Source: an uncultured Solirubrobacterales bacterium
Lineage (GTDB): Bacteria; Actinomycetota; Thermoleophilia; Solirubrobacterales; 70-9
Assembly: GCA_963737575.1 (NCBI GenBank)
Contig: CAVTTJ010000006.1
Span: forward strand, 20,620-84,619
Reading direction: 5' to 3'
DNA length: 64,000 nucleotides
Notes under the pieces: model-generated
What the model saw: only the letters and a program-made list of their open reading frames with translations
The model's database searches: none
What the model was told of the DNA's origin: nothing
Part shown: piece after piece, positions 12,427 to 38,137 of the stretch
Layout: every line of letters starts with the position of its first letter
How positions within the stretch are numbered: position 1 is the first letter of the stretch
Program-made: the position numbers and the translations under genes

Positions 12427-12438
12427 GGAAAGGCTGAG

Positions 12439-15078: not shown

Positions 15079-15467
15079 ACAACTATTACCGAGGGGATAC
15101 TCGATCGACGGACGCCAAATATGTCATCGACCCGAGGGCGCGCCGATCTTACGCGAGACGCCTAACACCGAGTTGAGCAGCGGCGCCTGCGCGTCATGGT
15201 CTGCGCCCGGCCGAGTGCCCTCGCTCAGCGGAAGAAGGGCTCAGATCCGGCTAGTTTGAGACACTGTATCGGCGCGTAATAGGTCGATTTGCAGGGGAGA
15301 TGTCGCCAATGCCCAAAAAAGGGACATATCGGGTTGCATTTGGAGACTCGATCCTCTAGTCTTGCGCCCGCTCGCCAGGGAGGCGGGCCCGGGAAACATT
15401 TGACAGGGACTCTCGCACCGGTTCGATTAGGTGCAGGGTGAGGTCGAGCAGGGAAGGAGAGCATCGG

Positions 15468-17894
15468 GTGAGAGGCGCCAAGGAAACGTCTGCGACGTTG
15501 ATTGCGCACGCCGCGAACGGTCGCCGCACCGCCGTGGTGGCAATGCTCGCGCTGGCCGCCATCGCTGCCGTTGCGGTCCTCCCCTCGACAGCGCTTGCCG
15601 CAAGCGGCGGCTGGATCTCGACCGGCAGCTTCGGCTCGTTCGGCACCGGATCGGGTCAGTTTCAGGCCGACTACTTCGGGACCGGGGGCGGCGCCGCGGT
15701 CGACGAATCGACCGGCGACGTCTACATCACGGACACCGGCAACGCTCGGATCGAGAAGTTCGACGCCTCCGGCAACTTTCTCGCCGCCTGGGGGTTCGGG
15801 GTCGTCGACGGCAGCAACACGTACCAGGTCTGCACGGCCCCGAGCGGCTGCAAGGCCGGCCTCCCCGGCACCGCCCCCGGTCAGTTCAGCGACCCCGGCG
15901 GGATCGCCGTCGACAACTCCAACGGGCCGAACGCCGGAGACGTCTACGTCGTCGACGGGAACAATCCGAACGGCGCCGGCCAGAACGACAGGATCACCAA
16001 GTTCAGCTCCAGCGGTACCTACCTCAGTCAACTCGACGCCTCGACCTCCCCAGGTGGCGCCTTCCAGGGTCTGGCATTCAACGGCGCCGTCGCGGTTGAC
16101 GGCAGCGGCTTCGTCTGGGTCGCCGACGCCAACCAGCGGGTCCTGAAATTCTCGAACCAGGCGAACAACGCCTACGTCGTCGGGTCGCAATGGAGCTCGG
16201 GGCAGGCCGGCGCGATCGCGGTCAATAGCGCCGGGACGAAGGTCTACCTCTTCCCGTCCTGCTGCTATTCCCCGGCACAGGTATTTGACGCCGACGGGAC
16301 GAATCCCGGCAACAGCTTCGCCGGTGGCGGCTACACCGACCAGTTCGCCGTTGATAGGGCGACCGGACACGTCTTCGCCTCCTCCGGCGGCTATCAGATA
16401 GACGAATACCAGGCCGATGGAACGCCGATCTCGGGGACCACGTTCGGAGCCGGGATGTTCTCATTCTCCGATGGGATCGCGATCAACTCCGCGACGAAGA
16501 CGATCTATGTCGCCGACCAGTATGGGTCGAAGGTCGTCAAGTTCGTCCCCCGCATCGTCCCCGACGTGACCACGGGCGATCCCACTGGAGTCGGGCACAC
16601 GAACGCAACCCTGACGGGCCAGGTCGCTCCCGACGCGACCGGAGGCGGGGACGTCAGCGACTGCCACTTCGAATACGGGGAATCGACCGCCTACGGATCC
16701 ACCGCTCCCTGCGTCCCGGCGACTCCATACTCCGGCAGCACGGCTGTGACTGCCGACCTGACGGGCCTCGCCCCCGACGTCACCTACCACTACAGGCTCG
16801 TCGCGAGCAACTCGATCGGCCCCAACCAGGGCGCCGACAAGACCTTCACCCCGAACGCGGTACTGGACACCACCACCGGGACGCCCAGCGATGTCACCCA
16901 GATCAGCGCCACCCTCAACGGCTCGTTCACCGGCGATAACCACGACACCCACTACTACTTCGAATGGGGTACCGACAACTCCTACGGGAATACGGCACCC
17001 GCCCTTCCCGGCGGCGATGCTGGGACCACCACCGGCACCACCCCGGTGAGCGCGGACATCAGCGGGTTGAGCGAGTACACGTTCTACCACTACCGGCTCG
17101 TCGCCACGAACAGCATCGGCACCACCCACGGCGTCGACCGCGCCTTCTACAGCGCTCCGCCGATCATCCCGGACATCCAGGAAACCGGCGCGTCCGGCAT
17201 CACCCCCACGAGCGCGATGATCTCCGCCCAGATCAATCCGGGCTATGGCCAGACGATCTACATCGTCGAATACGGAACGTCGGCCAGCTACGACCAGCAC
17301 ACGGCGCCAGGACCCGCCCTGGACCCGGACAACATCCTGCATCCCGTCAGCCAGGGCCTGACCGGCCTCTCGTCCGCCACCACCTACCACTACCGGATCG
17401 TCGCCATCAACTTCGGCGGTGTCGGCCGCACCCCCGACATGACCTTCCGGACCTCCGACGTGCCGAGCGTCGACTCGACCTCGAGCACCGGAGTGGACAG
17501 CAGGAATGCAACGCTGACGGCGAGGATCAACCCGAATCTCTCCTCGACCACCTACCACTTCGAGTACGGCGTGGATGCCGGCTACGGATCACGGACGGCG
17601 GAGAGTGCTCCGATCGGCGCCGGAGCCGGGGACGAGGGCGCCAGCGCTCAGCTCTCGGGGCTCGCCCCGGGAACCACCTACCACTTCCGTGTCGTTGCCA
17701 CGAACGGCATCGGCAAGACGAACGGCAAGGATCAGACCTTCACCACTGCGCCGGCGCCCGTCGGCTCTCCCCCGCCGCCCGCTGTGCAGAAATGCAAGGC
17801 GGGATTCGCGCGCAGGCTCGGGAAGTGCGTCCGCAAGGGACGCCACCACCAGAAGCGTCATCGCCGCCATCTGAGAGGCCACGGCAATGGCTGA
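15468..17894 (+). CDS. operon gene A: secreted NHL-repeat propeller plus 4 FN3-like modules, polybasic C-terminal tail
   Basis: The GTG start lies 7 nt after the RBS GGAAGGAG. The signal peptide ends ...AVLPSTALA. NHL-like blades include GDVYITDTGNARIEKFDASGNF. Four modules end in YHYRLVASN, YHYRLVATN, YHYRIVAIN and YHFRVVATN. The tail is KCKAGFARRLGKCVRKGRHHQKRHRRHLRGHGNG. Confidence 0.85.
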   Translation: MRGAKETSATLIAHAANGRRTAVVAMLALAAIAAVAVLPSTALAASGGWISTGSFGSFGTGSGQFQADYFGTGGGAAVDESTGDVYITDTGNARIEKFDASGNFLAAWGFGVVDGSNTYQVCTAPSGCKAGLPGTAPGQFSDPGGIAVDNSNGPNAGDVYVVDGNNPNGAGQNDRITKFSSSGTYLSQLDASTSPGGAFQGLAFNGAVAVDGSGFVWVADANQRVLKFSNQANNAYVVGSQWSSGQAGAIAVNSAGTKVYLFPSCCYSPAQVFDADGTNPGNSFAGGGYTDQFAVDRATGHVFASSGGYQIDEYQADGTPISGTTFGAGMFSFSDGIAINSATKTIYVADQYGSKVVKFVPRIVPDVTTGDPTGVGHTNATLTGQVAPDATGGGDVSDCHFEYGESTAYGSTAPCVPATPYSGSTAVTADLTGLAPDVTYHYRLVASNSIGPNQGADKTFTPNAVLDTTTGTPSDVTQISATLNGSFTGDNHDTHYYFEWGTDNSYGNTAPALPGGDAGTTTGTTPVSADISGLSEYTFYHYRLVATNSIGTTHGVDRAFYSAPPIIPDIQETGASGITPTSAMISAQINPGYGQTIYIVEYGTSASYDQHTAPGPALDPDNILHPVSQGLTGLSSATTYHYRIVAINFGGVGRTPDMTFRTSDVPSVDSTSSTGVDSRNATLTARINPNLSSTTYHFEYGVDAGYGSRTAESAPIGAGAGDEGASAQLSGLAPGTTYHFRVVATNGIGKTNGKDQTFTTAPAPVGSPPPPAVQKCKAGFARRLGKCVRKGRHHQKRHRRHLRGHGNG

Positions 17895-17934
17895 GCGGGC
17901 ACGGTCGGTACCGCGTTCGAGGAGAGGAGCGAGA

Positions 17935-20900
17935 GTGTACAGAGGCACCGGTGCATCGACGAAGGCGGTTGCCACACGCCTTCGAGTCGTTCGTGTCGCG
18001 GCGCTTGCGCTGCTCGCTGCGCTCGTCCTCGCCACCGTCGGCGCGGGGAGCGCATCGGCCGCGATCTCACATGTCTGGGTAAAGAACTTTTCGGTTGCGG
18101 GCGCAAGCAACGCCATTCCGCAGGCCGTCGACGCCAACGGCAACATCCTCTTTTACGACAACAACAACAACACCGTCGTGCGCACGGACTCCGAAGGCAA
18201 TCCCGTGCCGTTCTCGGCGTTGGAATCAGACGTGATCGACGGGGAAGGGGGCAATGACTGTCCAAACACGCCGGCCGATTGCGACAAAGTCCCCACGGGA
18301 AGCTTCACCGGGAACACGAGCACCAACTACATACTCGTCGCGGTCGACAATTCGAGCGGGCCGGCGAGCGGGGACATCTATGTCGTCAACCCCGTGGGCA
18401 ACCCGTGGGAAGAGGTGCGCAACGGCCAGATCGAGGTTTTCGCCCCGACGGGGAAATTCATCGGCGAGATCGACCAGATCCAAGCCCAGCCGATCAACTG
18501 CCCGCAGCCGACCGGCAACCTCGCCGGTTGCGAGTACAGCGGCATCTCGGTCGACAAGAACGGTCTCATCTACATCTTCGACAGCCATTGGCCGCTGAAC
18601 CACATCGAGCGCTGGGTCCCGATCGACGAAACGCCTGCGGACGACCACTTCCTGGGCGAGCTCCAGACCAACAACTACGACAGGGAAGGGCATGGGTACG
18701 GCGAGACGACTGCCAACGTCCCGCTTCCCTGCGCGTTGGACTTCGGCGTCGCGACCGCCGACTACACCTACTGCGGCAGCGGAGCCGGCCCTCCGCGGCC
18801 GGACTGGCGGAAGTACCAGCCATCGGAGTACCAGAGGCCCGCGAACCAGGAATCGGTGCCGATGAGCTTCCTCCCCGATCTCGGCCCGTTCGGGCCGTCT
18901 GGCGGCCATGACTCGAGCTGCAACTGCCCCGAACAGGCATACGCCGATCAGTCGACGCAGCACATGTTCGTGATCGGCAACAACTACGAAATCGCGATCC
19001 AGGAGTGGGACAAGGACAACCACCGGGTCGGGCCCGCATTCGGCGGCGGGCACATCGGTGGCGCGGGCAGGGAAGGAATAGCGGTCGATGGCAGCAACGG
19101 CCCGAACCGCGGCAGCATCTACGTTCGGTCGAACGGATCGCAGATCGCGATGTTCGGCCCGCCGGTGACGGTTCCGGACATCAGCTACGGCCCCAGCGTC
19201 GTCGGCCACACGACCGCGAGCCTGAACGGGACGATCAGCCTCGCCGGCGGGACGAACGTGCAGGAATGCAAGATCGAATACGGGTTGACGACGTCGTATG
19301 GCACGTCCACGCCATGCGACCAGCCGACCCCGTATTCGAATGAAACAGACGTGAGCGCGCAGCTGTCGAGTCTCTATATCGAGGCCACGTATCACTACCG
19401 CATCGTCGTAACGAACGCGCTCGCCGGCAACTACGGGACCGATCAGACGTTCCGCACGCACGCGGTCCTCGATGCCAAGACCGAACCCGCCACGAACATC
19501 ACCATGAGCTCCGCGGAACTGAACGGATCACTCGATCCCGACGGGATGAGCACCCAGTACCACTTCCAGTGGGGAACCACGCAGCTGTACGGCCATGAAA
19601 CCGAAACGGCGGATGCCGGATCTGGCTCAGGGGACGTCAGCATGGCGCCGCAGACGATTTCGAACCTTCAGTCGGGGCGCACCTATCACTACCGGCTCGT
19701 GGCGGAAAACAGCCTCGGCACCACATTCGGCCCGGACGCAACGGTGAATGCCGCGCGAACTCCGGCGATCGATGGCGTTTACACGACGAGCGTGGGCGAA
19801 ACATCGGCCGACCTGAACGCGCGGATCAACCCCAGCGGGTTCGACACGTCATACCGCTTCGAATACGGCACGACGCCCGGCTACGGGTCGGTTGCTCCAA
19901 GCCAACGACGTCGACATCGGTTCTGGAGAAGTCGATCAGACCGTGACCGCTCATATTGCCGGCCTCGTCTCCGGGGTGACCTATCACTACCGTGTGGTCG
20001 CGACGAACCAATGGGGGACCACCGAAGGCGACGACACGACCTTCGACTACTTCCCACCAAACTGCCCGAACGCCCACGTGCGGCAGCAGGTAAGTGCCAA
20101 CTACCTCCCGGATTGCCGGGCCTACGAGCTCGTCTCGCCGGGTGACGCGGGTGGGATCCAGATGTTTTCCGGGAACGGGATTCCGCATCTGAACAACGCC
20201 CTACCGCCGGAATGGGACAACCTGCCTCAGAACAGCGGCTACGCGAGCAGCCCGGCGCGCTTCGCCTTCTTCGGCGCGCTGGGTGCAATCCCGGGCACCC
20301 ATGCTCCCAACTCCCTCGTCGACATGTATGTCGCGACGCGGACTCTCGACGGTTGGGTGACAACGTACCCGGGGCTTCGGGGTGACCAGGTGCTCGCGGC
20401 CGTGGGGCCCCACTGCAGCGCCGATCTGAGCCAGTGCTACGACTTCAACTACGGCGATCTGTTCGGCACCGACCCATCCAACAAGCAGTCCAAAGTTGCG
20501 TACAGCTTCAACGTCGACGGGTCGTTCCGCGGAAGGCTGCCGACGAACGCCGCGGTCGTGCCGAATTCAGCCGAATATCAGGGAACACAGCGAGCTTCGG
20601 CCGACTTCAGGCACTTCGTCTTCTCCTCGAACAACTACCCCTTCGCGGCCGGCGGCGTCGTCGGCGCGCCGGGGTCGGTCTACGACAACGACACTGAAAC
20701 CAACTCGATCACGATCGTCTCGAAGCTGGCAAGCGGAGATCCGATTCCGCAATCTGGAAAAGACCCGAACGAGTATCTCGGGATCCCCGCGGTCTCCTCG
20801 GACGGCTCGCACATCCTCATGTCCACCGCCTCGGCCACGCCCGAAACTTCCCATCTCTACATGGCCGTCAACGACTCCCTGTTCTACGACGTTTCGAAGG

Positions 20901-22060
20901 GTTTCGACGTCAAATTCGTCGGCGCCTCCAGTGACGGCTCAAAGGTCTTCTTCACCTCGAAAGAGCCTGTAACCGCCGATGATCACGACACCAGCGCAGA
21001 TCTCTTCATGTGGAGCGAGGCGAGCGACTCGATCACCCGAATCTCCCAGGGCGACGGCAACGGTGACACCAACGAATGCGTGACTCAGTGGGAGGGCATC
21101 AATTGCGGCGTCGTGCCGGTGAATACCGGCGTTTCGACGGATGACGTGGTCTCCGCGGACGGCGCCATCATGTTCTACTCGCCCGAGCAGCTGGATCCCG
21201 CCAATCCCGGCGTTCCGGGCGAGCGGAATCTCTACCTATATCGCAACGGCTCCGTCAGGTTCGTCGCCACGATGGATCCGGGGTCGGTGATCGCCAGGTT
21301 GCAGATGTCCCCCGACGCAACCCATTCGGCACTGCTCACCGACAGCACTCTGACCGGTTACGACAACACCGCCCCGGATGGCGTTTGCTCCGAAGATTCG
21401 GAAGGCGGGAAGCTGACCGGGCCGAAGTGCCGGGAGATGTACAGGTTCGATGCCGACACCGGAGTCCTGCAATGCGTGTCCTGCAACCCAACCGGGGAGC
21501 CGCCGTCGAACGACATCTTCGCCAGCGCGAGCGGGCGGTTCATGAGCGACGACGGGCGGACGTTCTACTCGACCCGCGATGCCCTAGCTCCGCGCGATAC
21601 TGACGGAATTCAGGACGTCTACGAGTTCGTGGACGGCAGGCCGCAGCTGATCTCGAGCGGCACCGGCAAACAGGACGAATGGGGAGGCGGTCTCCTCATC
21701 TTCCCGCCCTCTGTGGTGGGCCTCGAGGCGGTGAGCCGCGACGGGACAAACGTCTTCTTCTCCACCTTCGACACCCTCGTGTCCGAAGATCACAACGGGC
21801 AGTTCCTGAAGTTCTATGACGCCCGCACCAACGGCGGCTTCCCGGAACCGCCGCCGGCGCTTCCCTGCACCGCTGCCGACGAGTGCCATGGCGAAGGAAG
21901 CGCGACCCCGGCCGAGCCACAGGTCGGAACCGGCGCGCAGTTGGGCGGCGGCGGCAACGCCCAGGCGCCGAAGCCCGAAGGCAAGCGACACAAGCTCAGG
22001 AAGCACCGCAGGAGCCGGAGGCATCGCAGGCACGGCCAGAGGAGCGTGCGCCATGGTTAG
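17935..22060 (+). pseudogene. operon gene B: NHL propeller + 3 FN3-like modules + PD40/TolB-like propeller, about 1370 aa, interrupted by a 1-nt frame disruption near 19897-19901
   Basis: ORFs 17887..20145 (frame 1) and 19892..22060 (frame 2) join into one protein collinear with the paralog at 24872..28490. Frame 1 reads ...FEYGTTPGYGSVAP, then frame 2 reads ANDVDIGSGEVDQTVTAHIAGLVSGVTYHYRVVATN. The GTG at 17935 follows the RBS GGAGAGGAG; the ATG at 17887 is an alternative start. Confidence 0.8.
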
Positions 22061-24809
22061 TTCGGCTTCGGTCTCACGGATGTCCTGGGCGCGACGGGCG
22101 ATCTGCCTGATGTTCGTCTTCGCAGCGGTGTGCGTACTGGGTCCCGCGTCGGCCCAGGGATTCACGGGGATCAACCAGTTCAACATGAACTTTTCGACGT
22201 ATCAGGCCGGTGGCCATCCGGATGTCGACATCGACCTGAACATGGACACGAGAGGCTCGCAGGGCGGAGTGGCTACGACCCCACCGCCGGGGACCTGCGA
22301 CTGCCAGGACGTCGAAGGCATCGACATCCATTTTCCCACCGGGTTCATCGGCAGCCCAGGCACCGTTCCGAAGTGCTCGCTCGCGGACTTCAGCACCGCC
22401 GAATGCCCGGTTAACGCACAGGTCGGAGAGGTCGACCTCGGGTTCATCGGCCGCAAACCCATGTACAACATGCAGCCGAGGCCCGAAGAGGCGGCGCTGA
22501 CCGCCTTCGAAGTGCCGGCCACGAACTCGGCGGCGTTCACAGTTCTTCATGGGCGCACGGGCTCGGACTACGGGCTCGATGCCACGACGACGGGAATCTT
22601 CCACATCCTGCCGCTCGGCGTGCTCCACATCCATCTCTGGGGGGTCCCGGCCCTGCCGATCCACGACGTCAACAGATGGCCGAAGCAGACCGGCCTCTGT
22701 GTGCAGAACGAATATCCGAATCCGTGTTTCGGGGTGACGGCTTCCAACAGTCCGCCCACTCCGTACCTTGAGGCGCCAACCACCTGCGGCACGCCGCTGA
22801 CGGGCGCCGTCGACCTTCGCTACTACGACTTCACCAACGTCCGCGCCGAAACCTCGGTTCCGGGAACCGTCGGCTGCGATCAGCTGACCTTCAACCCGAG
22901 CCTCACGGCCCTGCCGACCACGACGCAGGCGGACTCCGCCTCCGGGATGGACGTCGATGTGGTCGTGCCGCAGACGCTGGACCCCTCGGTCCCCGCGCCC
23001 TCGGAGATCGAGGGGACGACCGTGCACCTGCCCGATGGATTCTCGATCAATCCGAACGCCTCAGACGGGAAGACCGCCTGCAAGGACGAGGAAGCGGCCT
23101 TCGGGACCGAGAAAGCCGCAGCCTGCCCAGAGTTTTCGAAGGTCGGCACCGACGTCATCGACAGCTCGGCGCTGCCGGGGCCGATCAGTGGCGCGATCTA
23201 TCTTGGGCAGCCGCAACCGGGGAACCGCTATCGAATCTTCCTCACCGCCGACGGTTTCGCGACGCACGTGAAGCTCCGCGGCACCGTGCAGCCGGATCCC
23301 GGCACCGGACAGCTCCTGGTCTCCTTCGAGAATCTGCCGCAATCGCCCTTCCGCGAGTTCAGCATGCACTTCTTCGGCTCCGAACGCGGCCTGCTCGCGA
23401 CGCCGACCCAGTGCGGCACATACCCGGTCAACACCGAATTCACGCCGTGGGACAACGAGCTGCCCACACAGCACTCGCTCTCGTCCTTCTCCGTGGACTC
23501 CGGTCCGAGCGGCTCTTCCTGCCCCTCGAAGCCTCGGCCCTTCGCGCCGAGCCTCATCGCCGGGACCGTTGACAACACCGCCGGAGCGCATACGCCCCTC
23601 ACGTTCCAGGTCAAGCGAAACGATGGCGATCAGAACCTCAGCGCGGTCAACGTGACGACGCCGCCCGGGTTCTCGGCGTCGCTGAAGGGGATCCCCTACT
23701 GCCCGCAGGCCGCGCTCGACCAGCTCCGGGATCCTGCCTATTCCGGCCTGGATGAGCTTTCCCAGTCGAGCTGCCCGGCCGCCAGTCAGATCGGCACGGC
23801 GACCGCCGGCGCCGGCGCCGGCACCCACCCCCTCTACACCCCCGGCAAGGTCTTCCTCGCAGGCCCGTACCAGGGAGCGCCCCTCAGCCTCGCCGTGGTC
23901 GTGCCGGCGGTCTCCGGGCCGTACGACCTCGGCAACGTGGTCGTCAGGGTCGCGGTCCGGGTCGACCCGACCACGGCGCAGATAACGGCGGTATCCGACC
24001 AGATCCCGCAGATCCTCGAAGGCATTCCGCTGAGGCTGCGCTCGATCCAGGTCAAGCTCGACCGGCGGGAGTTCGGCCTCAACCCGACGAACTGCGATCC
24101 CTTCTCGATCGAAACCTCGCTGACTGGGAGCGAAGGGACGGTTGCGACTCCCAGCGCGGGCTTCCAGGTGGCGAACTGCACCGACCTGGCCTTCGGTCCA
24201 AAACTCGGCCTTCAGTTCTCCGGCGCAACCAAGCGGAGGGGGCACCCGGCGTTGCAAGCGATTCTGCGGACCCGGCCCGGTGAAGCGAACATCAGCAAAG
24301 TCGTCACGAGCCTGCCGAAAACGCTGCTGCTCGACAACGCCCACATCCAGAGCCCCTGCACCCAAGTGCAGTACGCGCACGACGCATGTCCCGCCGGCTC
24401 GCAGCTCGGCTCCGCCACCGCCGAGTCTCCGCTGCTCGGCGAGCCGCTCAGCGGCCCCGTCTACCTGCGCTCGGGCAGCCACAAGCTTCCGGATCTCGTC
24501 GTCCAGCTCAACGGTCAGGTCGATATCGAATTGCTCGGCCGCATCGATTCCACGAAGGGAGGCGGCCTGCGGACGAGCTTCGAAACCGTGCCGGACGTCC
24601 CCGTCACCCGTTTTGCCCTCAGCCTCGAAGGCGGCAAGAAGGGACTGCTGCAGAACAGCTCCGACCTCTGCAAGTCCCCGGGCAGCGCCGGCATCCGGAT
24701 GACTGGACAAAACGGGGTGGTCGCCAGCAGCCGGCGCAAGCCCCAGGTGGACTGCGGCTCCAGCGCGAGCCACAAGCGCCATCTGCACAGGGCGAGGAGG
24801 CCACGGTGA
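22053..24809 (+). CDS. operon gene C: secreted 918-aa Cys-loop repeat protein of unrecognised family
   Basis: The ATG overlaps the stop of gene B, with the RBS GAGGAG 8 nt upstream. The signal peptide ends ...VLGPASA. An N-terminal STYQAGGHPDVD motif is followed by four modules of the form LPxGF...C...CPxxSxxG. The tail is SHKRHLHRARRPR. Confidence 0.85.
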   Translation: MVSSASVSRMSWARRAICLMFVFAAVCVLGPASAQGFTGINQFNMNFSTYQAGGHPDVDIDLNMDTRGSQGGVATTPPPGTCDCQDVEGIDIHFPTGFIGSPGTVPKCSLADFSTAECPVNAQVGEVDLGFIGRKPMYNMQPRPEEAALTAFEVPATNSAAFTVLHGRTGSDYGLDATTTGIFHILPLGVLHIHLWGVPALPIHDVNRWPKQTGLCVQNEYPNPCFGVTASNSPPTPYLEAPTTCGTPLTGAVDLRYYDFTNVRAETSVPGTVGCDQLTFNPSLTALPTTTQADSASGMDVDVVVPQTLDPSVPAPSEIEGTTVHLPDGFSINPNASDGKTACKDEEAAFGTEKAAACPEFSKVGTDVIDSSALPGPISGAIYLGQPQPGNRYRIFLTADGFATHVKLRGTVQPDPGTGQLLVSFENLPQSPFREFSMHFFGSERGLLATPTQCGTYPVNTEFTPWDNELPTQHSLSSFSVDSGPSGSSCPSKPRPFAPSLIAGTVDNTAGAHTPLTFQVKRNDGDQNLSAVNVTTPPGFSASLKGIPYCPQAALDQLRDPAYSGLDELSQSSCPAASQIGTATAGAGAGTHPLYTPGKVFLAGPYQGAPLSLAVVVPAVSGPYDLGNVVVRVAVRVDPTTAQITAVSDQIPQILEGIPLRLRSIQVKLDRREFGLNPTNCDPFSIETSLTGSEGTVATPSAGFQVANCTDLAFGPKLGLQFSGATKRRGHPALQAILRTRPGEANISKVVTSLPKTLLLDNAHIQSPCTQVQYAHDACPAGSQLGSATAESPLLGEPLSGPVYLRSGSHKLPDLVVQLNGQVDIELLGRIDSTKGGGLRTSFETVPDVPVTRFALSLEGGKKGLLQNSSDLCKSPGSAGIRMTGQNGVVASSRRKPQVDCGSSASHKRHLHRARRPR

Positions 24810-24871
24810 CGGCGGGGATTCTGAGACGAGCGATGAGTGGCATGACGATCACGAGAGTCAGGGGAGGGTCA

Positions 24872-27800
24872 GTGGCACGCCGACGGCACATCGGTCTATC
24901 TCGCGATCGGCCTGACGACGATCGGTCTGCTCCTCGCGGCGGCGCCCGCCGGTGCCACGACCGTCTACACGCACAACTTCCTCGGGTCGTTCGACGGTTC
25001 AGGCTCGAAAGGGCCGGGCAATGTTTCGACCGGGCCGCTCAACTCGGTCGGTCCGCTCGCGATCAACCAGTCGACCGGCCAGGTGTTCGTCTGGGACACG
25101 GGCATCGGGACGATCGACAAGTTCGACGCCAACGGAAATCCGCAGGCCTTTGCATCGCTCGGGGCCGGCATCAATTCGTTGAACATTCCGTATCTGGGCG
25201 GCCTGCCGATGTACTGCGACTGCGACATCGCCGTCGACAGCTCTGGCACCTCCAGCCAGGGGCGGATATATGAGTTCCAGGAGGGGCAGGTGACCTACGC
25301 CTATGAACCGGACGGTTCCTCCCTGAGCGGAAACTTCCCGCTGGCCTCGTTCGGCGACATGTGCGGAGGCGCCGTCGACTCCCAGGGCAACTACTGGTGG
25401 ACCGCATACGGGCAGGGAACGTTCGCCTACGACGCGAGCGGCACGCCGCTCAACAAATCCGTGGCACCGGAAGGAAACTGCCACCTCGCGATCGACTCCG
25501 CGGCGCCGGGCTCGCACCCGACGGCCGGCTATTTCTATATCGCCAACTGGAACGGAGCGGTCCACGCATTCAACCCGGAAGGCACCTTCGAGTACACCGT
25601 CGACGAAGAGGGGACCTCGGCCGTCGCGGTGGATCCCTCGACCGGAAACATCTACGCGGATCACGGGGACCACATCTCCGAGTGGGCTCCGAGCGATCCG
25701 GTCGGGTCTCCGAACACGCCGGGCGCCAAAATCAGCACCTTCGGTGAGCCTTCCCCCGGGTTCTCCGGGCTGCAGTCGAACACCTGCTACCCGACCCGGG
25801 GAATCTCCGTCAACGGCGTCACCCACTACGTCTACGTGTCGGACTGCGGGAGGGTGGACATATTCGGTCCGGGCCAGGCCGAGATCATCCCGACCGTCAC
25901 CACCGACGATGCCGACGTAGCGCCGACCACGGCGGTGCTCCACGGGCATGCAACCACCGACGGCGGCGGCGACACAAACGGGTGCTTCTTCGAATACGGC
26001 CTGACGGCGAGCTACGGGAAGACCGCACCGTGCGCCGACCCATCCGGCCCGATCCATGACGCCGATGGAAACATTGCCGTGACCAGCGCGCCCGTCTCGG
26101 AACTCGCCCAGGGCAGCACCTATCACTACCGGCTCGTCGTCACAAACACCAACGGGGCCGGTTATGGCACCGACCAGATCTTCAAGCCGCAGGGGCCGCC
26201 GGAGATCAGCAGTGTCGGTGTGTCTGAAGTCAACACCGACGGGGCGCGGATCACGGCCGCGGTGGATCCGTCTGGAGGCGACACCAGATATCAGTTCCAG
26301 TGGGGGTCGACGAACGCATACGGCAGCAGCTATCCGATTCCGGATCAGAAGCTGCCGGACACCAAGAACCTCCGGACCGAGAGGATGGTGCTCAAAGGCC
26401 TACAGCCCGGAGCCACGTACCACTACCGGATCGTCGCGCACAACGACCTCGGCTCCACCGAAAGCGGTGACCACACCTTCACCACGTTTTCCGAGAATCC
26501 ATCGGGCACGGACCCCTGCGCGAACGCCCACGCGCGCCAGCAGACCGGGGCGGCTCTGCTTCCCGATTGCCGCGCCTACGAGCTTGTCTCGGCTGGGAGC
26601 ACGGACGGCTACAACGTGCAATCGGACCTCGTGCTCGGCCAGGTGCCGCTGCCGGCGTTCCCCAGCGCCAGCGGTCGCGTGCTCTACTCGGTCCACTTCG
26701 GCACGATCCCTTCGGCGGGGGGCAACCCGACGAACTTCGGGCTCGACCCCTACCTGGCGACCCGTGGCTCGGACGGGTGGACGACACACTATGTCGGGAT
26801 CGACGCCGACGGGACCCCGACCAAAGGGCCGTTCGCCTCGCCCCTCGGGACGGCTGACGCTTCGCTCGAAACATTCACGTTTGCGGGCTCCAACCTCTGC
26901 GCGCCGTGCTTCGGAGACGGCACCACGGGCATTCCGCTTCGCATGCAGGACGGCACGCTGGTGCAAGGGATGAAGGGAAGCCTCGAACCGGGTCCGAACG
27001 CGGCGACCGACGGGCTCGTCGCGAAGGCGCTCTCCGCCAGCGGCACGCATCTCGTCTTCGGATCGACCTCGAAATTCGAGCCGGACGGCAACTCGAACGG
27101 CGACGTCTCGATCTATGACCGCAACCTCTTGACCGGAGTCACGCACGTCGTGTCCAAGACGCCGGATGGGGCAAACCTGCCGTGTCTTCAGGGGGCGGGA
27201 ACGTGCCACGGACCCGGGGACATCAACGGCATCGGCGAGCTCGACATGTCCGCGGACGGCTCCCGGATCCTCCTCGGCCAGCGGATGTCGACCGACGCCA
27301 GGGGCAACAACTACTGGCACCTCTACATGAACCTCGCCGATTCCGAATCCAGCGTCGACCTGACCCCGAACCCGGTCGCCGGTGCGATCTACGACGGCAT
27401 GACCGCGGACGGCTCGAAGGTCTTCTTCACGACCACCGACAAGCTCAGTCCGACGGCCGATACCGACTCGAGAGCAGACATCTACGAGGCGGACGTCGCG
27501 GGGAATGGAAGCGTGACCTGGCACCTGGTCTCGAGCGGCACCGGCGGAGCCGGGAACGTCGATTCCTGCAGCCCGGCCGCGAACCATTCGAGCGCTCACT
27601 GGAACAGCCTCGGTCCCGCCGGTTGCTCCGCCCTCGCCTTCGCCGGCGGCGCCGGGATAGCGAGCGGCGATGGGACGGTCTTCTTCCTCTCGCCTGAGAA
27701 GCTCGATGGCTCGGGAGTCCAGGACCAGCCGAACCTTTTTGTGGCTCGCCCGGGGCAGGCGCCCCGGTACGTGACGACGTTGGAACCGGACAGCACGTCC

Positions 27801-28490
27801 GTCACCAACGCGCTGACGCAGTCGGCGGTCCACAGCTACTCCGACTTCCAGGTGACTCCCAACGGAGAAGACGCGGTCTTCACGACCAAGCTCTCGCCGA
27901 ACGGCTACGACAATCGCGGCCACTCGGAGGTCTATCGCTATGACGTGGGCTCGGAAAGCCTTGACTGCGCCTCCTGCGCGCCCACCAATGCGTTTGCCAC
28001 CACAGACGCGCAACTGGCCCGGTACGGCCTCAGCGTCTCGGATGACGGCAGGGTCTACTTCACGAGCGGCGACCAGCTGGCGCTCAGGGATTCCAACGGC
28101 CACCGCGACATCTACCAATGGGATGACGGCAAGGTCGATCTGATCTCGACGGGAACCGGGAATTACGACTCCGGCCTGTTCTCGGTGAGCAATGACGGGA
28201 CCGACGTCTACTTCTTCACCCACGACACCCTCGTTCCAGAGGACGTGAATGCCCAGCTGGTGAAGCTATATGACGCCCGCAGCGACGGCGGATTCCCGCG
28301 TCTCCCCCCGCCGGTTCCCTGCCAGGCCTCGGACGAGTGTCATGGACCGGGGACCCAGGTTCCGCCGCCGCCCTCCGTCGGCACCTATGTGGGGACCGGG
28401 GGCAACGGCAAAGCCGGAGCCCGCAAGAAGCACAACCGTCACCGCAAACACCACCGTCGCCCGCGGCATTCACGGAGACATCATGGCTGA
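24872..28490 (+). CDS. operon gene B': NHL propeller + 2 FN3-like modules + PD40/TolB-like propeller, polybasic tail; the signal peptide is split by an apparent 1-nt frame disruption near 24887-24896
   Basis: Frame 3 is open from 24846 to 28490 and encodes ...VYLAIGLTTIGLLLAAAPAGATTVYTHNF..., but has no ATG, GTG or TTG before 25083. In frame 2, GTG 24872 (RBS GGGGAGGG upstream) gives VARRRHIG, the missing n-region of the signal peptide. The tail is KKHNRHRKHHRRPRHSRRHHG. Confidence 0.75.
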
Positions 28491-31261
28491 GCGGCAACCG
28501 AGCGAGGCAAGGAGAGTGACCGTGTTGAAGAGGGTGCTGGTGGTCGTGGTCGGCGTCGCGACGATGCTGCTCGTGGCATCGCCGGCTTACGCCAGCGAGG
28601 CGATCAGCTCGTTCACGGTCGATACGTCGACCACGCAGGCTGGCGGGCACCCTGACCTGACCACATCGATGACTCTCGACAGCCCGGGTGCGCCGGAGGT
28701 GGCGAAGGACGTGGCGGTGAGGATGCCGGAGGGGGTCTTCGGCAACCCGCAGGCGATTCGCCAGTGCAGCACCGTCGACTTCGCCCAGCAGGAATGTTCT
28801 CCGACATCACAGGCCGGCGTGGTGACGATTTCCGCCAACTATGGGGGGGACCCGGAAAACCTGCTCGGGAGCGCCCCGATCTTCGACATGGTTCCCGCGA
28901 GCAGTGACGAGACCGCTCGCTTCGCCTTCATCGTGCCGGGAGTGAACATCCCGATCAGTGTCCCGGTCACGGTGCGCACGGGGTCCGATTACGGCCTCAC
29001 CTTCAACGTCACCGGGATTACTCAGATCATTCCTCTCGCTTCAGTCGACTTCACCGTCTGGGGCATCCCGGCCGATCACTCGCACGACAACGAACGCTTC
29101 CTGATCGGCTCCCTCAGCCACCCGGCGGGATGCCCGGGCGAAGCCACCGCGATCTGCGCGTCCCAGTCGGGCAGCGCTCCGAACTCCGCCGGCATCCCGC
29201 CGCAGCCGCTGACCGACAACCCGACAACCTGCCCGGGGCAGCCGCTGACGGTGAGCGCCGAAATCCGGACCTACCAGGATCCGGCGAATCCCTCCGGTGC
29301 GGAGGCCGACTATCCGCCCTCCACCGGCTGCGAGCTGGAGACCTTCAACCCGGTGATGAATATGTCGCTGACCTCGACTGAGGCCGATTCCCCCGCCGGC
29401 CTCGACGTCACGCTGAAAGCGCCTCAATTCGAGAGCCAGGCTGCATCGCCGTCGGAGATCCGTTCGACGACCATCACCCTTCCGGAAAGCCTCTCGATCA
29501 ACCCGGACGCCGCCGACGGACAGCGCGCCTGCACGGATGCCCAGGCGAACTTCGGTAGCGACGGACCGGCGAACTGCCCCGACAACTCGAAGATCGGCAA
29601 CTTCGACGTCGAAACGCCGGCACTAACCGGCCCCCTCGTCGGGGCGATCTACTTCGGTGAACCGAAGCCCGACGACCAGTACCGACTCTTTCTGGTCTCC
29701 GATGGGTTCGGGATCCACTCAAAGCTCGTCGGATCGGTAAGGCCTGACCCGCAAACGGGGCAACTGACCATGAGCCTGAGGGATCTGCCGCAGGTTCCCT
29801 TCGAAGCGCTCAACGTTCATCTATTCGCCTCCAACAGGGGCCTGGTGGCAACGCCCACCCAGTGCCGCGTGTACGGCGTCGACTCGGTTTTCGTTCCCTG
29901 GAACACCAGCCTTGCGCCACAGCATTCGGCGCCGATTTTGAGCATCGATTCCGGGCCGGACGCAGAGCCCGTGCCCCGGTCCGATCAGGCCGTTCCACCC
30001 GAGCCTGGTGGCCGGTGCCTCCAACCCCGTCGCCGGCGCCTTCTCCAGCTTCACGCTGAGGCTCGACCGAAACGACGGCGACCAGTTCCTCGGCGATCTG
30101 AACTTCCGGATGCCTCCCGGCTTCACCGGAAACCTGCGCGGAATCAGCTACTGCCCGGATGTGGCGATCGGGCAGGCGGCAAACAACCTGGGCCGGACGG
30201 AGCTGGCGAGCCCGAGCTGTCCCGCCTCCTCCCAAATCGGGACCACCAACGTGGCCGCCGGGCCAGGTTCACACCCCTTCCACGCCGTCGGCAGGATGTA
30301 TCTGGCGGGCCCCTTCAAGGGAGCGCCGCTGAGCCTCGCCGCGGTCACACCCGCCCTCGCCGGCCCCTATGACTACGGCACCGTCGTGGTGCGGGTGGCA
30401 CTGCATGTGGATCCACTGACCGCCCAGGTCACCGCCGTCTCGGACACGGTCCCCCACATCATCGGTGGCGTCCCGATCCGGATGCGCTCGATCCAGGTCA
30501 ACATCGACAAGCCGAACTTCACGATCAACCCGACGAACTGCAGCCCGTTCTCCGTCGAATCACAGGGAATCGGCGATCAGGGGACGGTCGCGGACTTCAG
30601 CTCCTACTTCCACGCCGTCAACTGCGCGGCGCTTCCCTTCAAGCCGCAGATGACGCTCCGCCAGCTGGGCGGCCACAAGGCCACCGCCAGGAGCAAGGAC
30701 CCGGCGCTGCGATTCGACCTGCGGACGAGGCCCGGGGACGCCAACATCAAGTCGCTGACGGTGACACTGCCGAAGTCGTTCGCGATCGACCAGCGCCATC
30801 TCGGCAACATCTGCTCGAAAGCGCAGCTGGCCGCCGAACACTGCGCCGGCCGGCAGCCGATCGGTACCGCGAGCACAGTGACGCCGCTCCTGGATCAGCC
30901 GCTGAAGGGCCCGGCCTACGCGGTCTCGGGCTTCGGCAAACTGCCGCATGTCGTCTTCATCCTCGGAGGCCAGGTGACGATCATGCCGGAAGCGGAATCC
31001 TCCTCGGTCAACGGCCGACTGACGACGACCGTTCCCGTCGTTCCCGATGCGCCGATCGGCCACTTCCGCCTCAACCTCAACGGCGGAGGCCACGGCTATC
31101 TCACGAACACGCGCGACCTCTGCCGGCAGCAACCGATCGCGAGCGTCAGCTTCGTCGGCCAGAACGGATCGAGGTACGAACAGAAGCTGCCGATGAAGGC
31201 GGCCTGTGGAAAAGCCGGTAGGCAACGAAGTCACGAGCGCCACGGAGGAGGGGGACGATGA
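28483..31261 (+). pseudogene. operon gene C': paralog of gene C, interrupted by a 1-nt frame disruption near 29962-29968
   Basis: ORFs 28270..30372 (frame 1) and 30008..31261 (frame 2) join collinearly with gene C. Frame 1 reads ...SIDSGPDA, then frame 2 reads SPCPGPIRPFHPSLVAGASNPVAGAFSSFTLRLDRNDGDQ. The match in C is SGPSGSSCPSKPRPFAPSLIAGTVDNTAGAHTPLTFQVKRNDGDQ. The start is ATG 28483, or GTG/TTG near 28523 giving (M)LKRVLVVVVGVATMLLVASPAYA. Confidence 0.8.
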
Positions 31262-32790
31262 ACAGGCCGCGCTTTCGGCGCTGGGCCATCGCCGCCGCCG
31301 CAGTTCTGCTGCCGTTGCTGTTCGCTCAGGCCGCCCAAGCGATCTCGCTGATCAAAATCCGCGAGGTCTATCCGGGTGCCAATAACGACAGCTACGTCGA
31401 GCTGCAGGCCTACGGTCCCTTTCCCTTCGCTGGTGGAACGCTCCCCGGGAAATCCCTGATCCTCTTCACCCCGGACGGCACCCCGACGGACAGCTTCACC
31501 TTCATCCAGCACAACGAACTGGGCGCCGACAACACGTCCTTCCTGATCGGCGACACGGGCGTCGAAGGAACCTTCTCCGTCACCCCGGACATCACCGATT
31601 CCCAGATGAACATCGACCCGGCGGGGGGCGCCGCTTGCTGGAACGTCGGCGACACCCCCGTCGATTGCGTCTCCTGGGGAGACTTCAGCGGCCGCGAAAG
31701 CCTGGTCGCCTTCGCCGGAACTGACGTCGGCAACCCCGCCTCTCCGGGAGGAATCACGCCCGGGAAGTCGATCGAACGGACGATCGCCCCCAACTGCTCC
31801 ACCTGGCTCGAGGCGGATGACGACACCGACGACAGCGCCACGGATTTCCACGAGACGGGGCCGAACCCGCAGCCTGCCGGGAATTTCAATCCCGCGGAAG
31901 AACCGTGCCTCTCGGGGATGCCGGACGACACCGTGGTCAACCAGAAGCCGAGCGATCCGTCGGACTCCAACAGCGCCCACTTCACCTATGCCGCGACGGG
32001 TGCGACGAGCTACCAGTGCAAGCTCGATGCATTCCCGCGTTTCACCGCCTGCCCTGAAGGGGGTCAGGACTACTCCAACCTCGGCGACGGCCAGCACACG
32101 TTCCAGGTGCGGGCCCTGAACACACACGGCCCGGACAGGACGCCGGCGAAGTACACATGGACGGTGGACACCACGGCTCCGCAGGCGACGATCATCTCGC
32201 ATCCCCGTCCGCAAAGCATCGGTAGGGAGGCCACATTCACGTTCTCCTCGAGCGAGCCCGCCGGCAGCTTCATGTGCAGTCTCGACACAGAACCCCCCTC
32301 GAGCTGCGAATCGGGGATCACGCTGCACTCGCTGAGCACGGGCTCCCACACGTTCCACGTCGCGGCGTCAGACCTTGCGGGCAACGTCCAGGCACCGCCT
32401 GCCAGCTATTCATGGACGGTCGAATCCAACCCTCCGGTGACGACGATCGACAGCAAGCCGGACAATCCGACCACAAGCTCGACGGCGACGTTCACGTACC
32501 ACGCGAGCAGGCCGGACACGTTCTTCGAATGCAGCCTCGATGGGTCGAGCTTTTCGAGCTGCCCGACGAGCGGCGCGACCTACGCCGGGCTGACGGACGG
32601 GCCGCATACCTTCAGCGTTCGCGCGATCGACTCTGACAACGACACGGAGGCGAGCCCGCCGAGCTACGCGTTCACGGTGGGCACTCCCACTGCGCCGGCG
32701 AAGCACACCTGCAGGAAGGGCACCAGGAAGAAGATGGTCGGTGGCAGGCTGAGGTGCGCGAAGATCCGGCACCACAAGCGCCACCACTAG
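31258..32790 (+). CDS. operon gene D: secreted lamin-tail-domain (LTD) protein with 3 Ig-like Cys-pair modules and a polybasic tail
   Basis: The ATG overlaps the C' stop (ATGA), with the RBS GGAGGAGGGGG. The signal peptide ends ...LLFAQAAQA. LTD signature: IKIREVYPGANNDSYVELQ. Three repeats follow the pattern F.C.LD...F..C......L..G.HTF.V.A.D. The tail is KHTCRKGTRKKMVGGRLRCAKIRHHKRHH. Confidence 0.85.
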   Translation: MNRPRFRRWAIAAAAVLLPLLFAQAAQAISLIKIREVYPGANNDSYVELQAYGPFPFAGGTLPGKSLILFTPDGTPTDSFTFIQHNELGADNTSFLIGDTGVEGTFSVTPDITDSQMNIDPAGGAACWNVGDTPVDCVSWGDFSGRESLVAFAGTDVGNPASPGGITPGKSIERTIAPNCSTWLEADDDTDDSATDFHETGPNPQPAGNFNPAEEPCLSGMPDDTVVNQKPSDPSDSNSAHFTYAATGATSYQCKLDAFPRFTACPEGGQDYSNLGDGQHTFQVRALNTHGPDRTPAKYTWTVDTTAPQATIISHPRPQSIGREATFTFSSSEPAGSFMCSLDTEPPSSCESGITLHSLSTGSHTFHVAASDLAGNVQAPPASYSWTVESNPPVTTIDSKPDNPTTSSTATFTYHASRPDTFFECSLDGSSFSSCPTSGATYAGLTDGPHTFSVRAIDSDNDTEASPPSYAFTVGTPTAPAKHTCRKGTRKKMVGGRLRCAKIRHHKRHH

Positions 32791-32835
32791 CCGGCAAGCC
32801 GCCGCCCGAATATCCAGATTTGCTGGGCTTTTCAG

Positions 32836-32908
32836 AGCCGACGCCCGGACTTGAACCGGGGACCCCTTCATTACGAGTGAAGTGCTCTACCAACTGAGCT
32901 ACGTCGGC
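32836..32908 (-). tRNA. tRNA-Thr (anticodon CGU)
   Basis: The reverse complement folds as a cloverleaf: GCCGACG TA GCTC AGTTGGTA GAGC A CTTCA CTCGTAA TGAAG GGGTC CCCGG TTCAAGT CCGGG CGTCGGC T. No CCA is encoded. Confidence 0.9.
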
Positions 32909-32965
32909 GCGATCGCACATTCTATGAGCGAATCGCCCGCGGTTCCGTCGCGGCCGCGCGCGAGC

Positions 32966-33595
32966 ATGCCGGATATGAGCAAGACACGCCAGCCGATGCG
33001 CAGAGAGGAGAACGAAGTCGAGTTCGCCCGGATCGTCGCCTTCAGCGACGGCGTCTTCGCGATCGCGATCACGCTGCTGGTGCTCAATCTCCACATCAAA
33101 TCGGGGCTGCCCGGCGACCGGCTCTGGCATGAAGTTTGGGAACTGCGCGAAAACTTCATCGCCTTCGCGATCAGCTTCGCGGTGATCGGGCGCTTCTGGG
33201 TCATCCACCACCGCTTCTTCGGCGAGGTGAGGGCGTTCGAGGGGCGCCTGATCGCCCTCAACATCCTCTATCTGGCCTTCATCGTCCTGATCCCGTTCAG
33301 CAGCCAGCTGCTCGGCGAGTATGGGGGCGAGGCGGCGGCCGTCGTCGTTTACGCAGTCAATCTCGCAGGGTGCGTTCTCGTCGGGTTTCGGATGAATGCC
33401 TACGCCCGGGGGGCCGGGTTGGCGACAATCGACGACGCGACCCAGCGCGAGAACTCATTCCGCGCCCTCTTCATCGCGTCGGTGTTCCTGCTCTCGATCC
33501 CGCTCGCGTTCGTCGCGCCCGGCATCGCGCCGCTCCTCTGGCTCACGCTTTTCCTGGACCCGGCATCGCGGCTCGCGGCCCGCGCCGGGGGTTAA
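32966..33595 (+). CDS. TMEM175-family (DUF1211) potassium channel
   Basis: RIVAFSDGVFAIAITLLVL matches the family signature (FSDGVFAI.ITLL). It has about 6 TM helices. Confidence 0.8.
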   Translation: MPDMSKTRQPMRREENEVEFARIVAFSDGVFAIAITLLVLNLHIKSGLPGDRLWHEVWELRENFIAFAISFAVIGRFWVIHHRFFGEVRAFEGRLIALNILYLAFIVLIPFSSQLLGEYGGEAAAVVVYAVNLAGCVLVGFRMNAYARGAGLATIDDATQRENSFRALFIASVFLLSIPLAFVAPGIAPLLWLTLFLDPASRLAARAGG

Positions 33596-33615
33596 CGTTC
33601 AGCGGAGTTGCCTCG

Positions 33616-35919: not shown

Positions 35920-35926
35920 TCTGCGC

Positions 35927-38125: not shown

Positions 38126-38137
38126 TCGATTTGACCG

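Follow-up and report, generated by a model that had tools for sequence, protein, structure and literature searches.

Polybasic end-pieces of exported Solirubrobacterales proteins: a candidate polyanion-binding module

Introduction

The window analysed here is a stretch of 64,000 nucleotides (~68% G+C) from an uncultured Solirubrobacterales bacterium (assembly GCA_963737575.1, contig CAVTTJ010000006.1, positions 20,620 to 84,619), and its subject is the set of polybasic carboxy-terminal tails carried by the proteins of a tightly packed + strand operon, A-B-C-B'-C'-D, which spans 15.4-32.8 kb. Together, these tails define a modular and polycationic end-piece that is found on exported proteins and is specific to the Solirubrobacterales lineage, and the phenomenon is much broader than the window, the end-piece being kept in thousands of relatives. 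With about even confidence, it may be read from its anatomy as a position-independent polyanion-binding module, which would hold proteins non-covalently on the negatively charged envelope of the cell, or else on DNA or matrix.

To our knowledge, nothing is known of surface-protein display in the Solirubrobacterales, which are abundant and almost uncultured soil actinobacteria. Exported proteins that bear the module are very numerous and are covered by no domain model, with several copies of the 17-kb operon per 2.5-3 Mb genome, and a profile of it would improve the annotation of these genomes and define a candidate surface proteome. The module is a short tag, enzyme-free in the favoured reading, and its binding to wall polymers, DNA or minerals is directly testable.

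The terminal tails of the operon proteins

The six tails are present on the operon proteins with exactly the sequences and coordinates reported in the initial annotation. The accompanying description of all six as almost pure Lys, Arg and His (K/R/H) needs correction for C' (GRQRSHERHGGGGR), which has only 43% K/R/H and a net charge of +3. Overall, the tails of the window carry charges of +3 to +13 plus 2-7 His.

In protein A, a Cys loop (CKAGFARRLGKC, C-x10-C; 17793..17828, + strand, as are all the features of this section) is followed by a basic run (VRKGRHHQKRHRRHLRGHGNG, 17829..17891), the final GNG of which lies within the overlap with the start of B. Both Cys of this loop are invariant among 52 homologues of A, and its G and V nearly so. 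In the AlphaFold2 (AF2) model, the loop is predicted to be a beta-hairpin with strands at residues 749-752 and 755-758, with a predicted local distance difference test (pLDDT) score of ~56-60, and the basic run has a pLDDT <50. Protein D presents a longer loop (CRKGTRKKMVGGRLRC, C-x14-C; 32710..32757) and the basic run AKIRHHKRHH (32758..32787), behind which there is no gene, so that none of its residues is due to gene overlap. The loop of A and D had been described as Cys-x(11-14)-Cys before HHxKRH, a spacing which is correct for D and not for A.

The folded part of B ends in the conserved motif PCTAADECHG (21863..21892), which is followed by a G/P-rich linker and by the basic tail KRHKLRKHRRSRRHRRHGQRSVRHG (21983..22057; net +13, 5 His), and the equivalent elements of B' are PCQASDECHG (28317..28346) and KKHNRHRKHHRRPRHSRRHHG (28425..28487; net +10, 7 His). 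In C, the tail from the invariant last Cys is CGSSASHKRHLHRARRPR (24753..24806), for which the family consensus is CGSxxRHKRH. Both C873 and C901 are invariant in the C family and probably form a pair, and the basic run begins directly after C901, the last Cys; residues 904-918 have a pLDDT <50 in the AF2 model. The weak tail of C' (net +3), taken from its last Cys, is CGKAGRQRSHERHGGGGR (31205..31258), and its GGGGR end is encoded by the ribosome-binding region of D, GGAGGAGGGGGACG, together with an ATGA overlap.

The last one to six residues of the tails are, in fact, imposed by the start codon and the ribosome-binding site of the next gene. The start of B overlaps the stop of A in the 8-nt sequence ATGGCTGA (17887..17894), the same sequence forms the overlap of B' and C' (28483-28490), B and C share ATGGTTAG (22053-22060), and C' and D share ATGA (31258-31261), preceded by GGAGGAGGGGGACG. 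It is these overlaps that fix the endings ..GNG, ..HHG, ..RHG and ..GGGGR before the respective stop codons. Overlap was rejected as the whole explanation of the tails, given that it covers only one to six residues and that D has no downstream gene.

Restriction of the tails to the operon families

The distribution of the tails was assessed in the window and in related loci, for which one genome per species was scanned; 110 stretches encode relatives of C, and 80 of these were kept. The 80 loci are thus neighbourhoods of C homologues, nearly all of them from Solirubrobacterales metagenome-assembled genomes (MAGs), often with several loci per genome. Open reading frames (ORFs) were called by a heuristic based on the G+C content of third codon positions, which covers ~67% of the DNA of the loci, signal peptides were likewise called heuristically, and the ORFs were assigned to the operon families by BLASTP against the operon proteins. 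The tail score was the best K/R/H density over 12 residues within the last 30 residues, with a threshold of 0.66 for a strict pass.

In the window, A, B, C, B' and D score 0.75-0.92 and C' scores 0.50, compared with a maximum of 0.58 among 33 other coding-like ORFs, and no other ORF of the window carries such a tail. When the window and the 80 loci are taken together, the strict test is passed by 161 of the 288 operon-family ORFs versus one of the 450 others (Fisher p = 8e-81), and this single ORF outside the operon families itself carries the Cys loop. The tails are therefore not equally common on neighbouring ORFs, and the proposal that they might be a compositional artefact of GC-rich codons fails within these neighbourhoods. 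Of the ORFs outside the operon families, 149 have a signal peptide by the heuristic and none of these carries a tail, and a general tag of the secretome was rejected for the neighbourhoods on this basis.

The absence of a hydrophobic anchor, which had been noted for the six proteins, extends to the 288 operon-family ORFs, none of which has a C-terminal hydrophobic helix or even an uncharged 17-residue stretch in its last 45 residues. A search by regular expression of the last 60 residues of all the operon-family ORFs found no LPXTG-like motif with a hydrophobic segment. Among the operon-family ORFs of the loci, 57% end in an overlap with the next start codon, versus 18% of the others, which accounts for the frequent terminal R, HG and NG.

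The composition of the 161 tails (K 24%, R 21%, H 12%, G 10%, D+E 1.4%) is far from that of the bodies of the proteins (K+R+H 8%, D+E 11%), with His being 6-fold enriched and the acidic residues 8-fold depleted. The Lys codons of the tails are 91% AAG, although the bodies of the same genes use 39% AAA. A preference for AAG fits the avoidance of slippery A-runs where poly-Lys has to be translated accurately, and this bias is a supporting detail.

Conservation among homologues

The possibility that the tails would be absent from orthologs had also been raised, and the opposite was found in the A, B and C families, in which they are kept down to 37% identity. The C family has at least 1,620 homologues, of which the best 120 (53-83% identity) were inspected, and nearly all of these end in C-G-S-x-x-R-H-K-R-H followed by more basic residues. 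In the C loci at 37-42% identity, the basic run is still placed after the last Cys. The RHKRH string is encoded by six different codon strings in six loci, and the conservation is therefore at the protein level. An alignment of 78 C homologues also revealed the motif Q-A-G-G-H-P-D, invariant or nearly so, at the start of the mature proteins (window ~22200-22220, C residues 51-56), and many further invariant Cys.

In the case of B, the core without its tail matches 10,358 representative clusters, and the best 150 of these representatives, each less than 50% identical to the others, were taken as the test set. The strict tail test is passed by 128 of the 150, and nearly all the remaining ones are basic too. 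When B homologues with a different ("choice of anchor") anchor were sought, the best 150 representatives were all found to be basic-ended and provided no contrast. Of the 150, 132 contain C-x5-C-[HR]-G, a motif that is also visible in the loci. At the end of the folded part of the B proteins, P-C-x-A-[AS]-D-E-C-H-G is almost invariant and may serve as a disulfide, a metal site or a cleavage site, and it is followed by a G/P-rich linker of ~25 residues and then by the loop and/or the run.

Among 120 homologues of A, the loop and the run are both found in 84 and one of the two in 21 (105 of the 120 together), with a different basic element in ~14. Proteins like D with the same ending are encoded in L006, L099 and L122. 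The run that follows the loop varies in length and sequence, and its charge is kept.

The genes for B and C are always paired and translationally coupled, with many copies per genome. The operon, in the form (A)-B-C-B'-C'-(D), recurs at least five times per genome of 2.5-3.1 Mb, as in OY969912.1 (L006, L015, L019, L039 and L068) and OY970304.1 (L036, L037, L042, L043 and L049), which are closed MAG chromosomes; a third such chromosome, OY970329.1, also has several copies. Together, the copies form an unnamed paralogous system of very large size, which occupies several percent of these small genomes.

Modular architecture and other carriers

In its full form, the module consists of a linker rich in Pro, Thr and Gly (P/T/G-rich), a cationic hairpin of 12-16 residues with one disulfide, and a disordered K/R/H run of 10-25 residues. 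The consensus of the loop, C-[KR]-[KR]-G-F-V-[KR]-[KR]-x-G-[KR]-C-V-[KR]-[KR], is found on A, on D and on many relatives of B and B', and the two Cys are separated by 10 residues in 73 of the 88 modules collected and by 14 in 10 of them. The C family has the run only, placed right after the last disulfide Cys, and many B proteins have the linker and the run. In the AF2 models of C and A, the runs are disordered (pLDDT <50) and the loop of A is a beta-hairpin.

A scan of metagenome DNA with one string coding for C-K-K-G-F-V-K returned 53 loci, mostly on high-G+C contigs from soil, and in ~40 of these the loop and the basic run form the extreme C-terminus. The carriers include proteins similar to A, B and D together with secreted proteins of unrelated architecture, such as those with CarboxypepD_reg/SdrD_B repeats (L083, L089, L105, L114 and L118), one with FG-GAP and InlB B-repeats (L110), and two that have no Pfam match (L082 and L098). 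A signal peptide and a P/T/G-rich linker precede the module in L082, L083, L089, L105, L110, L114 and L118; in L098, the contig of which is cut at its 5' end, the linker precedes the module.

The loop may also be found directly after the signal peptide, i.e., at the N-terminus (L133, L121, L093 and L130), as an N-terminal tandem pair (L127), or in an internal position (L102 and L117). Given these N-terminal, tandem and internal loops, the module would work independently of its position. The carriers L127, L133, L121, L093 and L130 are small secreted proteins, in which the Cys loop after the cleavage site is followed by a P/T-rich linker and then by an uncharacterised domain.

Some members of the A and B families have an alternative C-terminal element, in which two Cys bracket ~50 residues rich in Lys, Arg and Ala (K/R/A) and which ends ..AAKRCRRNLRRAK. 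This element looks helical, and it takes the place of the hairpin and the run. As a different basic element can replace the module in this manner, charge rather than sequence appears to be the conserved property, apart from the small hairpin. The alternative element was recorded in L009, L010, L012, L056 and L058, and in P0331, P0333, P0337, P0342, P0344, P0352, P0374, P0382 and others.

Two further searches were made for the module. No match was obtained when viral contigs were scanned for two loop-coding strings (with phage lysins or fibres in view), and a profile of the 45-residue module returned seven weak matches, all of them small fragments, among 5.8 billion proteins, the module being too short and too biased in composition for this type of search.

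Possible function and competing explanations

In the favoured reading, that of a polyanion-binding end-module, the operon proteins would be exported through their N-terminal signal peptides and would then fold extracellularly, under conditions that allow disulfides to form between their many Cys. The cationic end would tether the acidic bodies (pI 4-5) through multivalent electrostatic contacts with envelope polyanions, for which the candidates would be teichoic or teichuronic-type wall polymers, lipoglycans or anionic lipid head groups, with extracellular DNA as a further possibility. The His residues may make this binding sensitive to pH or metal ions, and the final one to six residues of the tail would not be part of the binding function. 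The module would thus do the job of LPXTG, GW or SLH anchors, in a non-covalent manner and without a dedicated enzyme. Basic runs of the XBBBXXBX type (B, a basic residue) bind heparin-like polyanions, and cationic disulfide hairpins bind lipopolysaccharide and lipoteichoic acid.

The tails had been put forward as a retention or sorting signature. This idea stands as far as the reality of the tails, their exclusivity and their retention in orthologs are concerned, and, as regards their role, a self-contained binding module is favoured over a sorting signal because the loop is also found in N-terminal, tandem and internal positions, because the run is conserved in its charge only, and because no enzyme is conserved in the neighbourhood. 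Electrostatic binding to anionic wall polymers or to extracellular DNA, as suggested at the outset, is compatible with the anatomy, i.e., with acidic bodies and tails of +3 to +13, from which we infer it.

Several points weigh against this reading. Binding and association with the cell are deduced from anatomy, and the ligands proposed would be hypothetical for the envelopes of these uncultured Solirubrobacterales. The loop, with its invariant Cys and near-invariant G and V, and the RHKRH that recurs after the last Cys of the C family are conserved beyond what pure charge needs and could be a recognition site, R-x-K-R being the cleavage consensus of the kexin/furin type. Export through Sec might be hindered by a terminal run of 10-20 positive charges on the substrate. 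The hairpin is predicted with moderate confidence only (pLDDT ~56-60), the ORF and signal-peptide calls are heuristic, and the loci are neighbourhoods and not whole genomes. The fact that none of the 149 nearby signal-peptide proteins carries the module implies, in addition, that the cell does not use it as a general anchor for surface proteins.

Given the conservation of the loop position by position, an alternative would be a true sorting or processing signal, in which a hypothetical protease or transferase (such as a kexin-like enzyme that cuts after K-R) reads the Cys loop and/or R-H-K-R, and either removes the tail or attaches the protein covalently. This is judged unlikely, even though the C family has the consensus CGSxxRHKRH at its invariant last Cys, convertases are known to recognise R-x-K-R, and the module stands in place of LPXTG-type signals on adhesin-like proteins. 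The module is also N-terminal, tandem and internal, the run is variable in sequence and length and can be replaced, with the rest of the module, by an unrelated basic helical element, and there is no hydrophobic segment to hold the substrate at the membrane. No processing enzyme was found to be conserved beside the operons in the 80 neighbourhoods, nor was any sortase-like family found among the conserved neighbours there. In a bolder version, which is quite improbable, the hairpin and the K/R/H run would be the address tag of a surface-display pathway of the Thermoleophilia, with dedicated machinery that reads the hairpin or R-x-K-R and attaches or processes an adhesin-like regulon; if true, this pathway would be a functional counterpart of the sortase and exosortase systems without a membrane-spanning signal, and a new protein-sorting system.

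The cationic tails may otherwise dock on the acidic bodies of partner proteins of the operon (B with C, and so on) and glue them into an extracellular lattice, fibre or coat, in which case the wall would not be the primary ligand. Each protein does combine a body of net charge -22 to -93 with a tail of opposite charge, the coupled B and C genes are always found together in many copies per genome, and the module is concentrated in the operon families. This explanation is nevertheless just as unlikely as a sorting signal, as the same module is found on unrelated proteins encoded elsewhere, and as tails that are disordered and variable in sequence are poor candidates for specific interfaces between proteins. 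Adhesion to targets outside the cell, instead of the cell itself, is rather improbable; these targets would be anionic or would contain metal, such as clay or silica surfaces, humic substances, neighbouring cells, or metal ions bound through His. The carriers were recovered from soil metagenomes, His is 6-fold enriched over the bodies, and K/R/H-rich peptides bind silica and metals; on the other hand, a tail bound only outside would leave the protein without a link to the cell, and the His content varies widely, with many tails being almost pure Lys and nothing specific for metal sites. An artefact without any protein function, arising from GC-rich codons, read-through, or the translation start (ribosome-binding site and start codon) of a following gene, is extremely unlikely. 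The last one to six residues are indeed set by overlaps of the start codon and ribosome-binding site (..HG, ..GNG and ..GGGGR before the stop, and the terminal R from CGATGA), and the tails show a slight enrichment of AGG, a purine-rich codon. However, the tail of D ends the operon with no gene behind it, tails of 13-35 codons exceed any ribosome-binding site, and they are absent from 449 of the 450 neighbouring ORFs of the same composition and kept, in different codons, at 37% identity, with D+E depleted 8-fold. A compositional artefact was rejected on similar grounds (one tailed ORF among the 450 neighbours, the depletion of acidic residues, and the same motif in different codons).

Genomic context of the operon

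Gene A (15438..17894, + strand, as are all six genes) is an ORF that encodes a signal peptide, an NHL beta-propeller, FN3-like repeats, a P-rich linker, the Cys loop and the basic run, with Pfam matches to NHL, fn3, PhoD_N and Pur_ac_phosph_N. Its AF2 model, from a deep alignment, has a pLDDT of 88 and presents a propeller and FN3-like domains, and the body of the protein has an isoelectric point (pI) of 4.38 and a net charge of -35. Gene B (17887..22060) is in two frames, 17887-20145 and 19892-22060, and encodes a signal peptide, a propeller-like region, FN3-like repeats and a second large beta-rich region. Gene C (22053..24809) encodes a signal peptide and a chain of beta-sandwich domains, modelled by AF2 with a pLDDT of 89 from a deep alignment; no Pfam family was matched in a Pfam scan of this protein of ~900 residues, and a Foldseek search of PDB returned only weak, generic multi-Ig matches (TM-score <= 0.16).

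The B paralogue, B' (24846..28490), has its first in-frame start at 25083, upstream of which there is a signal-peptide-like segment, and the C paralogue, C' (28483..31261), is in two frames. Gene D (31258..32790), the last of the operon, encodes a signal peptide, an N-terminal domain, Ig-like repeats, the Cys loop and the basic run, with weak Pfam matches to Big_13, Y_Y_Y and Big_3_3. Sequence searches of PDB with B' and D gave no match. Typical signal peptides start A, B, C, C' and D, and the bodies of the operon proteins of the window are acidic (pI 4.2-5.3, net charge -22 to -93).

Three probable frameshifts are present in the 17-kb operon of this assembly, in B, B' and C'. In B, the gene is split into two frames near 19885-19895; in B', near 24900, there is no in-frame start ahead of the signal-peptide-like segment (24846-25083); and C' is split at a CCCC run near 29965-29995. 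As most of the related genomes are long-read MAGs, these frameshifts may be sequencing errors of a long-read assembly, the alternative being decaying copies of the genes.

The end of the operon is marked by a tRNA-Thr (CGU) gene on the - strand (32835-32908), 45 bases downstream of D. The operon region (window 16000-34000) has a G+C content of 0.63-0.66 versus 0.68-0.73 in its flanks, together with a positive AT skew. In the bodies of the operon genes, AAA makes up 39% of the Lys codons and GAA 64% of the Glu codons, compared with 21% and 26%, respectively, in the neighbouring genes. The neighbours in the window include an RTX-repeat protein, a DUF1501 protein, a secreted Amidase_2, an MMPL transporter and a CDP-alcohol phosphatidyltransferase, all of them envelope-related, with genes at 14353-15123 (-), 12427-13785 (+), 33136-34242 (+) and 35891-38710 (+). 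These neighbours were checked for the basic module, including the amidase at ~33.6-34.2 kb, and it is absent from them.

In the related loci, regulators of the TetR family flank the operons in 37 of the 80 (L004, L005, L033, L036, L037, L041-L043 and others). Two families of small secreted proteins, of ~228 and 266 residues, accompany the operons in 14 and 22 loci, respectively, often as a gene trio, and neither has a Pfam match.

Relationship to known anchoring and sorting systems

Searches of the tails against Pfam-A and NCBIfam gave no match at E <= 10, apart from a sub-threshold similarity to the TIL hairpin at E = 0.03, and NCBIfam alone gave none at this cut-off for the six tail segments. 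The motif strings were not found in text searches of the literature, and nothing relevant was found in the literature on the surface proteins of the Solirubrobacterales or Thermoleophilia, or on polybasic tails in relation to teichoic acids. No such tail anchor is mentioned in a review of surface display in monoderm bacteria (PMC5817068).

The substrates of sortases, with their LPXTG signal, resemble the carriers of the module in that they are signal-peptide-bearing, repeat-rich, adhesin-like proteins (SdrD_B/CarboxypepD_reg or FN3/Ig-type) which end in a P/T/G-rich linker and a basic finish, and the position of the module after such linkers corresponds, by analogy, to the site of the wall anchors in other Gram-positive bacteria. 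Unlike these signals, the module has neither LPXTG nor a hydrophobic helix, its basic part has 10-25 residues rather than a few, and it is also found at the N-terminus. The choice-of-anchor, PEP-CTERM, GlyGly-CTERM and PGF-CTERM signals are alike in being short terminal modules shuffled among unrelated exported proteins of one lineage, and the NHL part of A resembles the PEP-CTERM protein ScyF (E = 4.8e-15, far below the cut-off). However, PEP-CTERM, GlyGly-CTERM and PGF-CTERM combine a transmembrane helix with a partner sorting enzyme, whereas the module has no helix and no enzyme among its conserved neighbours; the tails gave no NCBIfam match to signals of the PEP-CTERM, PGF-CTERM or GlyGly-CTERM type and contain no transmembrane helix.

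The statement in the initial annotation that all known C-terminal sorting signals contain such a helix is too broad, given that the C-terminal domain of the type IX secretion system (T9SS) is a sorting signal without one. This domain, a beta-sandwich of ~80 residues, had no Pfam or NCBIfam match in the tails, which are disordered in the AF2 models. No Pfam match to GW, SLH, LysM, WxL, CW_binding_1/2, SH3b or PG_binding was found in the operon proteins or in the isolated tails.

Charge-based, non-covalent anchors are known from the GW modules of InlB and Ami of Listeria, which bind lipoteichoic acid, from the cationic anchor regions of the S-layer proteins of Lactobacillus, and from the secreted cationic adhesins of staphylococci, which re-bind to the cell. 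The likeness to these systems lies in the proposed enzyme-free hold of an exported protein on anionic envelope polymers through a basic terminal region. They are, on the other hand, folded domains of ~80 residues or whole basic proteins, and the module has no sequence similarity to them and is found on otherwise acidic proteins.

Polybasic regions are also found in the Lys-rich C-terminus of the mycobacterial HBHA, the Arg-rich segment of NHBA from Neisseria, the Cardin-Weintraub heparin-binding motifs, and histidine-rich glycoprotein. These share with the tails disordered clusters of K/R(/H), a function that depends on charge density, and, where His is present, a dependence on pH or Zn. Patterns of the Cardin-Weintraub type, XBBXBX or XBBBXXBX, are present in every tail (for example, ARHKRH and KRHKLRKHRR), as a pattern and not as a homologous family. 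The HBHA and NHBA type of tail differs in that it is not homologous and binds host glycosaminoglycans, and HBHA consists of Ala/Pro/Lys repeats without a signal peptide or a Cys loop.

The hairpin itself is reminiscent of the ENF/stress-response peptides and of the EGF-type hairpins of TIL domains, with which it shares the spacing C-x2-G-x5-G-x-C-V and a hairpin predicted by AF2. The last hairpins of TIL and TIL_2 match the tails at E ~0.03 with 14.6-14.8 bits, below the cut-offs of 24-24.5, and the only PDB profile match of the module is to the insect Stress Response Peptide-2 (5w54), which aligned KCPSGRVRRLGICV at a non-significant E = 0.96. As these matches are below the cut-offs and the organisms and context are unrelated, the likeness to EGF-type hairpins with one disulfide is most likely convergent or purely structural and is not a sign of homology. 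The proposed principle, i.e., the non-covalent and charge-based retention of exported proteins, is a known one, and the module itself is an undescribed element.

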